A DNA stretch of 64,000 bases, from IMG/VR virus record IMGVR_UViG_3300028886_001624, positions 62,001 through 126,000 of that record; one strand, written 5' to 3'. The notes under the pieces were generated by a model. It worked only from the letters and a program-made list of their open reading frames with translations, did no database searches and had not been told where the DNA came from. Below, piece by piece: positions 48,647 through 62,705 of the stretch. The stretch's first letter is position 1; the number at the start of each line of letters is the position of its first letter. Made by a program: the position numbers and the translations under genes. Source of the stretch: an uncultured virus (IMG/VR IMGVR_UViG_3300028886_001624) (lineage: Duplodnaviria; Heunggongvirae; Uroviricota; Caudoviricetes).

Positions 48647-49120
48647 ATGAAAAAAATAGTTTATTCATTAGTGTTGATGATGTGTGTTATGTCGGTATTT
48701 AATTGTTCGAGCAACAATAGGCCGAAAACCATCATCGGGAGTTGGGAAACCATCAGTGTCAAGGGTGAAGTGAAGGAGTTTGGCGGTGAGTTCGAGCAAG
48801 ATTTCACATCACAGCAGATAAACCCCATCTATGAGGAAATGTATCGTTTCAAACTAACCTTTGACGAGAACACTTGCGTAACACTTGTTTCGTCTGTCAA
48901 TGGTCAATGGAAGGAAGATTCAGTTGATGTGTACAATTATATCCTCAACAATGGTATGGTGCGCATCTTGGACGTACGCAATAAGATGTTCGGAAATGAT
49001 AATGATGTGCCGCCCTTGGACGAAACGTTTGAGTATGCAATAATAGGTGACGAATTGTTTATGACTTGCTATAACGAGGATGAATATGTCACTTACCGGC
49101 TGAAACGCATAAAAAATTGA
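48647..49120 (+). CDS. Lipocalin-like lipoprotein
   Basis: Signal peptide ending SVFNC, IIGSW motif, beta-rich body ending YRLKR. Confidence 0.65.
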   Translation: MKKIVYSLVLMMCVMSVFNCSSNNRPKTIIGSWETISVKGEVKEFGGEFEQDFTSQQINPIYEEMYRFKLTFDENTCVTLVSSVNGQWKEDSVDVYNYILNNGMVRILDVRNKMFGNDNDVPPLDETFEYAIIGDELFMTCYNEDEYVTYRLKRIKN

Positions 49121-49307
49121 AAAAAGTTGTGATTTTGTTTCGGTAATTCAAAAACTTTGGGTACTTTTGCAATGTCAAAACAAAAAAACGAATAGAAAAT
49201 GAGTAAAAGAAGTTTCAAAAGAGCGGTTGCGGCCGCAAAGGTTACGGCCATCCCGTCAAAGAAGAAAGGCAATGGACAAGATGCCATTCAGTTGTACAAC
49301 GTGTACA

Positions 49308-49482
49308 AATAGGTAGCAGCACTACCGAATTTACGCTTGTGGACTACCCAACTGCCGAAAGGCGAACCACACGAATGTGTGGGGCTATGGATGACAGACT
49401 CGGCAATGAGGTACTAAAAAGTAGTGGTAGGTTGAAGCAAGAAGTTAATAATGGATAAACAAATTTGTTCAAGTTTTAACAT
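49308..49482 (+). ncRNA. Orphan TnpB omegaRNA-like element without tnpB
   Basis: AATAGGTAGC..ACTACCGAATTTACGCTTGTGGA, TGGATGAC, CTAAAAAG and TGAA(A/G)CAAGAA are shared with 2786-2884. Confidence 0.8.
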
Positions 49483-49749
49483 GCTGTACAAGTAACTGAT
49501 TATTAACCCGTGGAATATGGGGGTGTCCTCCGGAACACGATAGGTCGAGCAAGTTCATCGGTCACCCCCATCCACACAATTCAAGCCATTATGGAACGTC
49601 CTCCACCCAAGTAAGGAATAATTCAGATAATTTATTTTTATTATTATATGCAAATTTAAAGCCCATAACACAATGAATCCAAGAGCAAGTCCCATAAAAT
49701 AGATTTTAATTCGTCTATACATTATACATTAATTATTTATTCTCTCGCA

Positions 49750-49855
49750 GGGATAAACCCAAACGATGGGTATCACCCTTGACGCAACGAAGTCCCCGGA
49801 GAGTCCGGCTGACATGAACGTCATTGGCGATTGCGGTTCGTTCCGCATTATCCCA
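49750..49855 (+). ncRNA. tRNA-like RNA with a multibranch domain in place of the anticodon arm
   Basis: Acceptor GGGATAA/TTATCCC-A, D-like ACCCA/TGGGT, T-like TGCGG-TTCGTT-CCGCA. Confidence 0.65.
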
Positions 49856-50018
49856 CAATAAAAAAACTGTTTTTCGTAATTTGAGTTGTTTAGGTTAATT
49901 GTAACAGATGTGTTGTGATAACACGTCTGTTATTTTTTGAAAATAATTCTGTTTTTATTTCGTCAATTCAAATTATTTGGGTACTTTTGCATTGTCAAAC
50001 AATTAAATAATATAAGTT

Positions 50019-53000
50019 ATGATTGAAAAGAAAGAAAATTTAGTAGAGTTGTCAAAGAAAATCGTAGATTTCAATGAGGCCGTGATTGCCGCTTGCAAGG
50101 CAAAAGGCATCGCAGTACCAAGCGCAGAGGAAATGAGCGACTATATGCACAATTATGGCTTTGATGTCCAAGATTTCATGCAAACCATCCAAGAGCAAGA
50201 GAAGGAGATAACTCCATTCGATGAGTTTAAAAATGAGGTTATGGGCATTTGTTGGAGCGATATGCCCACGGATAAGGAAATGCTTGCCTTCTTCAATGAG
50301 AACGGCCACAATGTCCGCTTATTCATGATGCAGAGAACCATTCAAGATTTTAATAAGATTGAGAAGGCCATATATGACGCGGTAATTAACAAGTTTAGCA
50401 TCGAAGAACTTGTTGGCCTTTGGAACTTCTTTATTGAAGAAAGTGCATTGTATGGGGAAGATTCCAAAATCTATGACCTTAAAAATTCGGATTCCATCCC
50501 CATCATTGCAAACATGGGAGAAGCAGACGCAAGGAAATTGTTTAACGATGTAATCTGCAAGGGAAAGAGATTCTTCCAATTCATTGTCAGTATTGATGTG
50601 AAAGAAGAAGATGATATTAAAGGCATCATTACGGCCTTTTGGGAGGAAATATGTGCGAGAATACTCATGTTCCCGATGGAGTATAATAATAATGTTGCTC
50701 CAAGTTCCTGCCTATTTATGGAAGTTGTGTGGCCGATAATTACCAAAGAGGCCGGAGTTGTTATTAATTATTTTCAGAATGAATTAAAATACACCCATTA
50801 AATAATTAGATTAGATATGAAATTAAGGGACGAAATAATCGACCACATTGACCGAGGGTTTAGGGATGTGGTGTTTTACAAAAGGGATGCCAAAGGCATA
50901 TATGGGATTTTATCGGCAAAGATACATGGAAGTTCAACTTTAACGATGATTCCGAAGATACCAAAGAATATTGTTGTTACGGCAATAGATGAGCGGCACG
51001 ACAAGGTTGTCTTTCCATATGAAGATTTGGAAGTAGAAGCGGTTATAACGTGGAACAAGGCACAAAACGGATGGGCGATGAAAGCGATAGAGTGACAAGA
51101 TAAAACTTAATTTATAAAAACCTTCTTGTATGGAATTTTTCTTTCAAGAAGGTTTTTTCTTTGTTTATTTCTTGTTTTTTAAAAATATTTTATATATCTT
51201 TGCATTGACAATGTTTAATTGTCGTTCAAGGAATAAAAACCTTTTTAAATTGAGATAAGCAAACGTTGGGGGACGTTTGCTTATTTTTTATTTGAAAATA
51301 ATTGTGATTTTATTTCGGTATTTCAAAAACTTTGGGTACTTTTGCAATGTCAAACAAATAAAAACAAATAAAGATTATGGAAAAGATTTGGTTAATGACC
51401 CAAGAAAGCAAGGTGGATGGGGATATTTTCTTTAATGTCATTCCTTGCGCAACGGAAGAGGCCGCAAAGGCTGAAATGGAGAAGGAGATTCGCACCTTGA
51501 TGAATAAGAGTCCTTATATCGAATATACGAATAGGTCTCTCGATTTTATCCGTGAAGAAACTGAAACCTCATACTACATTGAGGACACTTGCGATGCTTA
51601 TTATGAGTACATTAGGATAGAGAAAAAGGAAATAGTAAAGTAATAATAAGATTATGAGCACACCTTGTAAAATTATCATGAAAGTTCCCGAAGAATACAA
51701 GGGAACGACCATTAAGTTCAATAAATCAGCCCTTCCTATTGAATTGAAGGAATGGTACGAGAAGGACGAAAAGACAAATGAGGTTTGGTTAGACCAAAGA
51801 TGTAAGGAAAAATCACGGCCAATAAAGATTAAGGGTGATTACATTGGCATATATTGCCATTGGGATGGCGATAAAATCGGCAAGGTATTGAAGGAACTAT
51901 TCACCGACAAGAAAGCCGTATTGAACCTTATTGCCGGTGGTTTCTGCTCATTTATATGGTATGATGGTGTTAAACGCTATGCCAATAGGAATTGCGAAAT
52001 GTGGAAGGACATAAAGCCAATACAAGGCTCTCGTAAAAAGGTAGAAGAGAGCATCTACGGACTCTATGAGTATGTATTTGTCAATACTTGGACTAAAAGG
52101 AAACTATGAAAAAATAACTTGATTTTTATTTCAGTATTTCAATTTTTTCCGGTACTTTTGCAATGTCAAACAATTTAAAGCAAATAAGATTATGGGTAAA
52201 CATGTTCATGTAGCAGTAAAGTATGAGGTAAGTTATGATTCCTCATGTGGTTTTAATTGGCACAATGTGGAGTTTAAGGAATTACTCCAAGCCTTGAATG
52301 TCAGCACATACGATGCAGATGGAGAATTAACTGACGGATTTTCCGACACATGGGAATGTCATTCGGATGAGTACAACGAGGCATTGACTTTCTTGAAGGA
52401 GCATAAGGAGGACATACGCAGCCTTGATGAGGATGGTGATAAGCCGGAGTGTAACGGCTACGATGTCGAGTGTGAGGACATCTATGAAGCAATAATTGGC
52501 CTTGAATGCGGCAATGGCTTTGAGGATTCATACGAAGAAGTTGTTAAGATGATGGAACTATTCCAAAAACAAGCGGCAACATCGGACGGATATATGCACT
52601 TTTGTGCCTTCTGAAATAATGGTTGGGGTGAGGATTTTTATCTTCACCTCAACTTTTTTTGTTTTTATTTAAAAATAATTTGATTTTTATTTCGGTATCT
52701 CAAAGTTTCTTGGTACTTTTGTATCGTCAAACAATTTAAAATAAATAAGATTATGAAGAAAGCAATCGAATTAATGAATCAGATGATTCCTATGAAGAAG
52801 GAAGTAAAAAAGACTTGTATCGCATACCTAAAGAGGGTGTTGGAGAAGTGCAATAACAATTACTTGTCCTTCTATGACGAGGATGGTGAGGCATATGGCA
52901 ACAGATACGTTTCCGTCACCTATGACGGGGGAAACCATCCGGAGTATGAAAGCAATGCCTTCAGTACCGTAAAGGGTGTTTTCATTGACAAATACGGGGA

Positions 53001-60619: not shown

Positions 60620-61001
60620 AACATTGAATGTTTAGTGTAACAATAATTTAAAGAACTCCTTTGTCTTATTAAGACAATGCAAAATTACCCCAAAAAACCG
60701 ATATAACAAACATTTTCGGTAATTTTGAAGCCTTATTTGCAAAAAAACGAAAAAAAATGCCTTGAAACGCTATGAACGTGCATGCAAAAAAAGCGATTTA
60801 TTGTGCAATAAGAAATTTAACTTTTTATTATATAGGAGAATATCCTGCCATATATACATTATTATATTATAGGGAATTTTCAAATTATTTTCATTTTATG
60901 TTGTCAAACATATTTTTTTTGTTGTGTATTTCAAAAAATCGCCGTACCTTTGCAGCAGATTTAGAAAGAAATATAGTCAAACAAGTTAAACAACATTTAG
61001 T

Positions 61002-61685
61002 ATGAAAAAGATTTTCTTCAAAGAAAATTCTTCTGTCCATAGGACGGAAAATTTAGAGAGATTCTGTGTGGAAATGCGCAGAGTAACGAGAGTAACCAAC
61101 AACCGCAACAGTGAGGAAGAATTTAGTAACTTGCTTGCCGAGGCACAGGAAGGTAATACCGCTTCTCGGAACAAGTTAGTAGAAAAGCATCTTCGTCTTG
61201 CCTATAGTGTGGCTGCACATTATAACGGCATGGCAGAATTTGAAGATTTACTTCAAACGGCATCTATCGGCTTAATAAAGGCCATAGAAAACTATCGTAG
61301 CACTGATGGCTTATTTAGTTCCTACGCAGTTATGACTATGCGTAGGGAAATTACGCACGAACTAACCGCAAACGGCCGGAAGTTTGGGCATGAAGTAAAG
61401 AGCATTGACGAGCCGTTAGAAGGTGCAGAAGGCGCAGGAAACGAGCGTTTCAGTGACCTTTGCGCCGGAACATCACATGCAGACGATATTGTCAGCGCAG
61501 ACGAAAGAACAAGAGAGATTAAGAAGTATATATCTTTCTTGACAGAGCCGGAGGCAAAAATTATCTTAGGTGAATTTTTGCAGGACGAAACCGATTTTAC
61601 TATGAGTTTAAAACTCGGTGTATGTGTTGAAAGAATACAACAGATAAAGCGCAGTGCTCTGAAAAAATTAAGAGAACTGATGTAA
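61002..61685 (+). CDS. Phage-encoded sigma70-family RNA polymerase sigma factor
   Basis: Region 2 RNKLVEKHLRLAYSVA..Y..EDLLQTASIGLIKAIENY..FSSYA; region 4 LGVCVERIQQIKRSALKKLR. Confidence 0.92.
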   Translation: MKKIFFKENSSVHRTENLERFCVEMRRVTRVTNNRNSEEEFSNLLAEAQEGNTASRNKLVEKHLRLAYSVAAHYNGMAEFEDLLQTASIGLIKAIENYRSTDGLFSSYAVMTMRREITHELTANGRKFGHEVKSIDEPLEGAEGAGNERFSDLCAGTSHADDIVSADERTREIKKYISFLTEPEAKIILGEFLQDETDFTMSLKLGVCVERIQQIKRSALKKLRELM

Positions 61686-61699
61686 GATTAAGAATATAG

Positions 61700-61731
61700 A
61701 AGGCGGAGCGCAGTATTCCCTCCGCCTTTTT
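61700..61731 (+). terminator. Intrinsic terminator after the sigma gene
   Basis: AAGGCGGAG...CTCCGCCTT followed by a T-run. Confidence 0.8.
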
Positions 61732-61783
61732 CTATTTCTTTACTTTTTAAAAAAATAGTCACCTACCTATTACGTTTTTAAAA

Positions 61784-61799
61784 TGTTCCACATGGAACA
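61784..61799. promoter_or_regulatory. parS-like palindrome TGTTCCACATGGAACA
   Basis: One central mismatch to the parS-type palindrome TGTTCCACGTGGAACA. Confidence 0.6.
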
Positions 61800-61801
61800 T
61801 T

Positions 61802-62220
61802 CCCCACACCCCCCCCTATATACCCCCCACCTATGTAACCCCCGCCCCCCTACGGGATTTTTAGTACCCAAAAAGGTGGAACAGTTTCCTAAATATTTTC
61901 CTGGAAAAAATTCTGATGTTTTAAAAAAGAGACATGTGTTAAAAAATTTTGAAAAAAAATTCTAATGATTTAAAAATGATGCACATTAAATATTTCCTGG
62001 AAAAAATTCTGATGGTTTAAGAAAAGACATATGTTAAAAAAAAATTGGAAAAAAAAATTAGTATATTTTATTATGGGCTAAGTCTCTAAAAAAAATTTTG
62101 GAGAAAAAATTTTGATGATTTAAAAAAGAGACATGTGTTAAAAAAAATTCCGGAAAAAATTTTTCTAATGTTTTACGGAGACCTCTTAAAAAAAATTTTG
62201 GAAAAAAATTTTAACGTTTT
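61802..62220. repeat. C-tract cluster followed by A-tract direct repeats
   Basis: Five C4-C8 runs at 61802-61850; three copies of AAAAAATTYTGATGxTTTAARAAAGA(GA)CATRTGTTAAAAAA. Confidence 0.8.
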
Positions 62221-62246
62221 AAAATACAGTTGCCTTTACTTATCTA

Positions 62247-62705
62247 TTATTTTATTGAACTGAGTGTGTCGAATATTTTCCTTAAGGGTGACTCGTTGAC
62301 CCTTATGGAACTTAGTGTGCCAAATATTTCCCTTAAGCGTGGTTCGTTGACCTTTTGTGTTTCGTCGTTAAGGTTAACCGTCAAATGGTTTAGGAAGTTG
62401 GTCGCCCAAGTGTCACTAACGTTACGCCAAAATCCGGAACCTTCCGGTGTGTTTGCCCACTCAAAGGCGGTTATAAAGATGCTCTGCTTAAAGGACACCG
62501 TGGAATTAATTTCCTTGAAGTGACATAACATTAACTTCAAGTTACTAGTTTTGTTCTTCCACCTACTTCTTCCAACAACACACAACGCGCTATATTTTCT
62601 GAACGAGTGGTAACACTTGTTGTGCTTGAGGAAAAGTACGAACAAGAAAAGAAATTCTTGTCTGTTTATGACGTAGGTTGACAAATCTTTTAGTTTATCT
62701 TTCAC
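62247..62705 (-). CDS. Hypothetical protein with a C-terminal 17-aa tandem repeat
   Basis: VNEPRLREIFGTLSSI / VNESPLRKIFDTLSSI; FEWANTPEGSGFW motif. Confidence 0.65.
   Translation of the reverse strand: MKDKLKDLSTYVINRQEFLFLFVLFLKHNKCYHSFRKYSALCVVGRSRWKNKTSNLKLMLCHFKEINSTVSFKQSIFITAFEWANTPEGSGFWRNVSDTWATNFLNHLTVNLNDETQKVNEPRLREIFGTLSSIRVNESPLRKIFDTLSSIK

Follow-up and report, generated by a model that had tools for sequence, protein, structure and literature searches.

An IS607-derived, gene-less omegaRNA scaffold that is polymorphic among rumen phages, as a candidate nuclease-less homing cassette

The DNA analyzed here, a stretch of 64,000 nucleotides referred to below as the window, was taken from a 135.8-kb virus record of IMG/VR (G+C content, 37.9%; CheckV completeness, 45%), of which it covers bases 62001-126000. 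The cassette and the resident element described below lie on its + strand. A 366.7-kb metagenome contig contains the same DNA with 100% identity over 3029 nt, and the runs in which this stretch was located in public data are bovine gut or rumen metagenomes. When the interval 49130-49640 was compared with the INPHARED phages, Prevotella Lak megaphages alone matched (6 records, 29% of the query, 82% identity), and the matches were confined to the scaffold portion described below. TAG recoding is known in Lak phages. It was considered for this record and rejected: the ORFs gained less length from opening TAG than from opening TGA or TAA, the search for a suppressor tRNA was negative, and genetic code 11 was kept. 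Searches of IMG/VR with the flanking genes 48647-49120 and 50019-50801 gave no confirmed relatives and no syntenic loci by that route.

The locus of interest begins with a putative promoter at 49134-49179, formed by TTTG (49134-49137) and TACTTTTG (49162-49169) inside a repeat of about 70 nt; we take this TTTG/TACTTTTG motif to be the Bacteroidota -33/-7 consensus. The repeat at 49145-49179 is one of 15 near-identical + strand copies found in the window between 41583 and 56796, where none was expected by chance. A looser scan of the 135.8-kb record gave 19 copies, most of them with the ATG of a small gene some 20-30 nt downstream. A scan for sigma-70 promoters gave 5 sites versus 5.0 expected from shuffled sequences, and comparison of 25 ORFs of the promoter-repeat island with PHROGs gave no functional annotation. 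Downstream of the promoter lies a 37-codon ORF (49199-49312), without a Pfam or PHROG family, which takes its final sense codon and its TAG stop from a 183-bp insert at 49305-49487. This insert is an omegaRNA scaffold lacking tnpB. Its predicted guide, the first 20 nt past the scaffold end, occupies 49488-49507, and a 15-pair hairpin followed by a T run at 49901-49933 is the likely terminator of the cassette. Judging from these predicted signals, the scaffold is embedded in the promoter-to-terminator unit of the 37-codon ORF, in agreement with the initial annotation, which had placed it just after this ORF and behind the promoter. The ORF ends in a perfect inverted repeat (TTGTACA-ACG-TGTACAA, 49290-49308), seen in the empty allele as well, and it is the right arm of this repeat that holds the insertion site. 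A weak FopS-like Rfam match (27.9 bits versus a cut-off of 56) covers 49867-49939, over the terminator hairpin.

A covariance model (R1) constructed from 37 copies of the scaffold family found exactly two matches in the 135.8-kb record, one at 49305-49487 (128.7 bits, E = 8.1e-25) and the other at the omegaRNA of a resident tnpB element (162.9 bits). The sequence 49303-49487 could be aligned with that element over the 3' end of its tnpB and its right end (alignments A1 and A2), and a BLAST comparison within the record showed 89% identity over 47 nt (E = 2.3e-12). The single tnpB gene of the record is located 46 kb away and no tnpB residues are encoded upstream of the scaffold, so that the claim of a homolog of the tnpB right-end RNA, 46 kb off and without tnpB, is borne out. 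RNAalifold analysis of the 37 copies yielded 26 consensus pairs, with compensatory changes in 15 of them, and the scaffold at 49305-49487 retains 26/26. The stem that had been described as compensatory between the two scaffolds (GAAAC/GTTTC versus CTACC/GGTAG) corresponds to alignment columns 42-46/133-137 and covaries across the 37 copies. The fold of the scaffold as a single sequence is not significant by itself (z = -1.5), and the structural support therefore rests on covariation. The two extra hairpins noticed at the outset, GCC-GAAA-GGC and CCACAC-GAAT-GTGTGG, proved to be a 33-nt insert (an in-frame length) at 49354-49386; both appear in the single-sequence fold. This insert is unique to one of the 37 aligned scaffolds, the present one, and an 18-mer taken from it had no exact match in IMG/VR. 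Being homologous to the 3' end and right end of tnpB, and having a structure backed by covariation, the sequence can be classed as a TnpB omegaRNA by sequence and folding. With neither effector nor transposase adjacent and an effector locus elsewhere in the genome, it also agrees with the stand-alone omegaRNAs as defined in the cited portion of PMC10691335.

The resident element (1029-2930) was identified by Pfam, end homology and tRNA restoration as a non-autonomous IS607-type element carrying a 73-aa ORF, a truncated tnpA and tnpB. Of the MerR-type TnpA only the HTH half is left (105 aa, 1348-1665). The tnpB gene (1659-2858) encodes 399 aa and matches the Pfam families OrfB_IS605 (1.4e-23), Cas12f1-like_TNB (2.9e-23) and HTH_OrfB_IS605 (1.4e-19); its product aligned with the ISDra2 TnpB structures 8BF8/8EXA with an E value of 1.9e-54. 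The motifs GIDLG, EDLN and DRDLNAA were aligned in both 9yyg_A and 8iaz_A, two solved chains of the TnpB family, and are presumably the RuvC catalytic D/E/D. Given that these motifs are retained, the protein does not belong with TldR, the nuclease-dead repressors. The resident omegaRNA, of the GG-core type, extends from 2781 to 2931, ends in ...TATACGGT and is followed by a guide starting at about 2932. Homology of the left end to other loci starts near 1024. Removal of 1029-2930 in silico joins 1011-1028 to 2931-2984 and produces a 72-nt tRNA-Thr(TGT), which places the element at the GG of the tRNA D-loop; since the element splits the tRNA gene at this point, its guide matches the intact gene. 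No second tRNA-Thr was found in the 135.8-kb record. The intron mode of ARAGORN proposed instead a tRNA-Val with an intron of 1882 nt around the element, which was dismissed as a mis-parse because excision gives a clean tRNA-Thr. The related element L056 (91%) encodes a 206-aa protein with HTH and Resolvase domains, and a segment of approximately 730 nt in L056 is represented by some 160 nt of the window.

The scaffold at 49305-49487 is closest to the copies L094, L079 and L071, with 91.4% identity to the tnpB-linked L094, 86.8% to L071 and 69.6% to the resident omegaRNA. Copies ending in CTGT (TG-core) accompany TnpBs 53-57% identical to the resident protein, and those ending in CGGT (GG-core) accompany TnpBs 72-94% identical to it. 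Among the loci with a recognisable left end, a GGGT left junction goes with a CGGT right end in 8/8 (winRES, L028, L034, L044, L092, L040, L051 and L055) and a GTGT left junction with a CTGT right end in 3/3 (L026, L035 and L071). This covariation suggests that two variants of recombination core and TAM, GG and TG, coexist in one IS607 lineage; the predicted TAMs would differ at one position, GTGT for the scaffold at 49305-49487 versus GGGT for the resident TnpB. The rule used to define element boundaries was verified on the resident element, whose excision restores the tRNA-Thr. The left junction of the scaffold in the window reads GTGT and then TAC, with which the left ends of L071 and L026 also begin, and the scaffold follows. 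A full TnpA with MerR-HTH and Resolvase domains (198-209 aa) lies upstream of tnpB in L033, L044, L056 and L071 (4/36 ORFs scanned). These proteins show the ancestry of the scaffold and not present membership: the serine-recombinase TnpA with MerR-type HTH beside tnpB that marks an IS607 transposon is missing at 49305-49487. Nor is the scaffold a mini-element with both ends and a matching core, its left end being reduced to about 3 nt (TAC). As to origin, one of the two readings offered in the initial annotation, a deleted IS607 relic, agrees with these data, in that relatives with the same scaffold carry the serine-recombinase TnpA and the left junction shows GTGT plus TAC, as do left ends of this subtype. 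The simplest reading would be that a TG-core IS607 element integrated at G|TG|T and lost its interior later. The scaffold was not assigned to the RAGATH-18 reRNAs of IS607 TnpB (PMC11061315), since Rfam searches for that motif were negative, both across the window (gathering threshold) and, with limits relaxed to E<=5 and E<=10, around the two scaffolds.

Two DNA contigs from other cattle metagenomes, X6 (627 nt) and X7 (573 nt), pass directly from 49301 to 49485, skipping 183 nt, and represent the empty site. Seven letters (TGTACAA) fit either side of this joint, and owing to this repeat the register of the insert is ambiguous within 49302-49491. A third DNA contig, X3, carries a diverged empty allele that passes from 49308 to 49502 with 6 other letters between; here 6 letters replace 10 in the guide-matching stretch, with mismatch from guide position 9. 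X3, X6 and X7 come from three separate cattle-gut studies, the empty allele being present in 3/3 of these DNA runs, and the filled allele was found in the 366.7-kb contig and in the RNA-library run X10 of a further study. No full element was observed at the 49305 site in the four runs X3, X6, X7 and X10. Because near-identical contigs from elsewhere skip exactly 183 nt, the insert is a presence/absence polymorphism, and because empty alleles are common (3/3 other DNA runs) it is not fixed. This exact difference between near-identical phage contigs of different studies also makes the scaffold an evidently mobilised one. At its 3' end the ORF reads AAA TAG in the filled allele versus AAG TAA in the empty allele, so all 37 encoded residues stay the same; no differences were listed within it other than two synonymous ones at third codon positions (49204 and 49207). 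Homology, conserved structure, boundaries, polymorphism and IS607 ancestry identify 49305-49487, at the level of sequence, as a real, intact and gene-less omegaRNA scaffold that segregates in a rumen phage population.

The X10 RNA-library contig (422 nt) covers 49325-49746 with 0 mismatches, crossing the scaffold-guide junction and continuing for 260 nt beyond. As one contig of one RNA library in which DNA carry-over is possible, it gives a weak hint of transcription of scaffold plus guide, and contigs of this kind give neither transcript ends nor strand. X10 had no cover on 48700-49075 or 49781-49921, and such absence from contigs carries no weight.

All copies of the scaffold end in ...ACGGT or ...ACTGT/GCTGT and continue into unrelated sequence. 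The guide therefore begins at 49488, after the conserved end at 49487 (...GCTGT), and the start near 49482 proposed initially has to be moved 5-6 nt downstream. It had also been asked whether relatives keep the scaffold and vary the guide, and this is the case: in 38/38 listed copies with a recognisable end, the downstream sequence differs between sites, and where related contigs carry a copy at one and the same site, the guide is common to them (L084/L091 and L037/L052). A comparison of the guide with host and phage sequences, proposed at the same time, found no target. In the window the 20-nt guide is a single-copy sequence, and exact searches of IMG/VR and of 185,579 GTDB species genomes gave 0 matches to it; those with the empty-site 20-mer likewise gave 0. 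The guide is the native 3' flank of the insert and equals the empty allele of the other cattle metagenomes; on current sequence records, the sole known match to it is the uninterrupted allele (GTGT plus the guide sequence) of sister phages. The initial annotation had counted a guide that matches only the empty insertion site as evidence against a trans-acting RNA, and that is, to the letter, the situation found. Such a match is the normal homing configuration of TnpB elements and no sign of inactivity.

We looked for further scaffolds of this family with a 19-nt core pattern, which occurs at at least 85 IMG/VR loci; 5 chance matches in G+C-rich coding DNA were dropped, and 81 copies were retained. 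Of these 81 listed copies, 45 directly follow a tnpB of the same strand, in 32 no more than 44 tnpB residues are left, and none is intermediate; the upstream DNA of 4/81 is too short for classification. Split by distinct sequence, the matches listed comprise 42 linked, 27 gene-less and 4 unclassified scaffolds, the gene-less share of the sampled scaffolds among these matches being about 40%. The census took copies with the exact 19-nt core, and the structure counts also required a recognisable end. The mean number of pairs kept, out of 26, is 24.8 in 19 stand-alone copies and 25.6 in 16 linked ones (L027 having been mislabelled as linked), a near-equal intactness that is no proof of selection because the sampling favours intact copies and misses decayed relics. 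A left end is present in the gene-less copies L040 and L051 (one junction, two sites), L055, L028 and L026; other gene-less copies, like 49305-49487, are without it. Scaffolds outnumber tnpB genes in a complete 553-kb phage (5 scaffolds, 4 tnpB) and in an 82.7-kb record (6 scaffolds, 4 tnpB). The incomplete 120-kb record G009 has 2 scaffolds and 0 full tnpB, and in the incomplete record G005, which carries a stand-alone copy, tnpB relatives were found at 44% and 27% only, none of them matching. Other arrangements were also seen. In L067 and L072 gene-less scaffolds lie within phage tRNA arrays and the predicted guide is tRNA T-arm sequence, and in L081 tRNA ends flank the scaffold. The record of L091 (G008) contains at 60951-62544 one tnpB and then two tandem scaffolds, of which the first (62067-62200) scores weakly, at 43.7 bits, and the second (62394-62544) strongly, at 157.4 bits. 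In the record of L060 (G002) the interval 414283-414692 holds a scaffold beside a fragment encoding TnpB residues 1-57 only, an internal deletion unlike the usual one.

The reading we favor, which we regard as having an even chance of being correct, is that 49305-49487 is a stand-alone omegaRNA gene, a remnant of a TG-core IS607 element, that works as a nuclease-less homing or drive cassette with a TnpB supplied from elsewhere. A TnpB element of the TG-core IS607 type would have entered a G|TG|T site where the 37-codon early ORF has its stop codon; a later loss would have removed everything after the first 3 or so nt of the left end, up to the 5' border of the omegaRNA. Since left end and transposase are both gone, the remnant can no longer transpose. 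A compatible TnpB made elsewhere would excise the omegaRNA from the ORF transcript and use the 3' flank from 49488 as its guide, and the target would be the empty allele, GTGT plus the guide sequence, in co-circulating sister phages. During mixed infection the cassette would convert or destroy empty alleles, the host not being a target. We infer transcription and processing of the RNA, its binding by TnpB, cleavage and a GTGT TAM. For use in trans speaks the resident tnpB of the same genome with its D/E/D motifs. Activity of the cassette is plausible and not more, chiefly because a TnpB of the matching subtype was not seen: no cognate TG-core tnpB is present in the 135.8-kb record, the sole tnpB of which is GG-core. 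In addition, the unique 33-nt insert could impair TnpB binding, and a matching tnpB is likewise missing from G009 and G005, two incomplete records with stand-alone copies. The resident TnpB may use the RNA as a second guide, as the initial annotation suggested, the scaffold being intact and placed in a predicted transcription unit, but the scaffold is of another subtype than the omegaRNA of this TnpB and the predicted TAMs differ.

The main competing explanation is that the scaffold is an inert relic, the neutral scar of an internally deleted IS607 element that is co-transcribed with the ORF, is not bound by TnpB and drifts to loss. We consider this a real possibility, although we lean against it. 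The loss of the left end and of all genes would fit such a scar, as would the lack of a cognate-subtype tnpB in the 135.8-kb record, a 33-nt insert that may be damage, and an insertion that is not fixed, with empty alleles in 3/3 other DNA runs; moreover, the terminal hairpin is decaying in some relatives, L019 retaining 20/26 pairs and L081 18/26. However, the scaffold at 49305-49487 has kept 26/26 pairs, its 33-nt insert forms two perfect hairpins, one of them GAAA-looped, and the deletions end just 5' of the scaffold in 32/32 listed tnpB-less copies, which is not expected from random deletion.

A further idea is that the remnant is a drive-resistance allele, which interrupts the target and shields its phage from sister phages carrying the full element, the RNA itself having no role. 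The insert does part GTGT from the guide-matching sequence, and the X3 allele is altered inside the guide-matching stretch, a variation expected of a targeted site. However, any scar would protect, which leaves the retention of a whole scaffold unexplained, and the four runs contained no full element at this site; we judge this explanation improbable. The other reading of the initial annotation, a domesticated guide that sends the phage TnpB against host or unrelated competitor DNA, draws on the strong promoter context of the scaffold and the intact nuclease gene of the same genome, but it is hardly credible for a guide that is native 3' flank identical to the empty allele, with 0 exact 20-nt matches in the 185,579 species genomes and IMG/VR, and at a locus where the INPHARED phages match only the scaffold part of 49130-49640.

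As a kind of element, the scaffold at 49305-49487 is not new, since stand-alone, trans-acting omegaRNAs are already described (PMC10691335, PMC10055086). PMC10691335, citing Altae-Tran et al. 2021, refers to stand-alone and evidently mobilised omegaRNAs in genomes that contain effector loci, and to their demonstrated function in trans. The scaffold at 49305-49487 is like them, as far as the cited portion of that paper describes them, in having no adjacent effector or transposase, an effector elsewhere in the genome, signs of mobilisation and a guide that is its own flank. It differs in residing in a large phage and not in a bacterial chromosome, in being of IS607 type, in being fused behind a small phage ORF, at the 3' end of the latter, with a phage promoter in front, and in the other subtype of its co-resident TnpB. 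According to the preprint of Meers et al. (PMC10055086), omegaRNAs are often encoded by PATEs and depend on a TnpB acting in trans. The present scaffold shares with PATEs and minimal IS200/IS605 elements, in the terms of that text, the absence of protein genes, the retained guide RNA and the TnpB borrowed in trans, and minis with a left end and an omegaRNA that resemble PATEs occur in other phage contigs (L040, L051, L055, L028 and L026). Unlike PATEs as described there, the scaffold has no left end (about 3 nt are left), which is why a transposase cannot move it, and the recombinase of its ancestral family is a serine recombinase and not a Y1 transposase.

The ends of the family recall the IS607 CboIStron, for which a TAM/target TGGG and a right-end terminus TCGG, one position apart, are given in 10.1101/2023.11.20.567912. 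In both cases, within what that source reports, a serine-recombinase TnpA lies beside TnpB, a core dinucleotide is common to both ends and the TAM-like end differs at one position, here GGGT/CGGT and GTGT/CTGT if the TAM is taken from the junctions. The family studied here differs in having a conserved T after the core and two core variants (GG and TG). Unlike in CboIStron, no group I intron was detected by Rfam. The proposed effect is also that of the free-standing homing endonucleases Seg and Mob of T-even phages, and transposon homing against co-infecting phages is a category listed in PMC13565253. As in the account given there, a co-infecting sister allele without the insert would be cut, and the insert with its flanks copied. 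The differences from that account are the proposed recognition by RNA and the location of the nuclease gene away from the locus.

If the cassette is active, it would be a 183-bp RNA-guided homing element segregating in a phage population, with its nuclease encoded elsewhere, and the 'selfish inheritance' model of TnpB would extend to competition of phage versus phage. More broadly, giant gut and rumen phages may keep gene-less omegaRNAs as extra guides, so that a few phage TnpBs cut sister phages at many loci; this generalization is speculative and in our opinion rather unlikely. Were it true, it would amount to RNA-guided marker exclusion, or to a drive with unlinked guide and nuclease, in mixed infection, and it would form a natural link from transposons with one guide to arrays with many. 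The locus offers a clean natural test system, as filled, empty and target-variant alleles co-circulate, and the covariation of GGGT/CGGT versus GTGT/CTGT predicts two specificities of TAM and core within one IS607 lineage.

Some minor features were observed in the DNA that follows the guide. A long G+C-rich hairpin (GGGGGTG...CACCCCC) is located at 49517-49572, 30 nt 3' of the guide, and a 55-codon hydrophobic ORF lies on the opposite strand at 49555-49722. Further downstream, 49750-49856 can adopt a cloverleaf-like fold with a 7-bp closing stem and three hairpins, the final loop of which is T-loop-like. ARAGORN predicted no tRNA at 49750-49856, and the fold of 49730-49945 has a z score of -3.75. 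The X10 RNA-library contig stops at 49746, directly before this cloverleaf-like fold.
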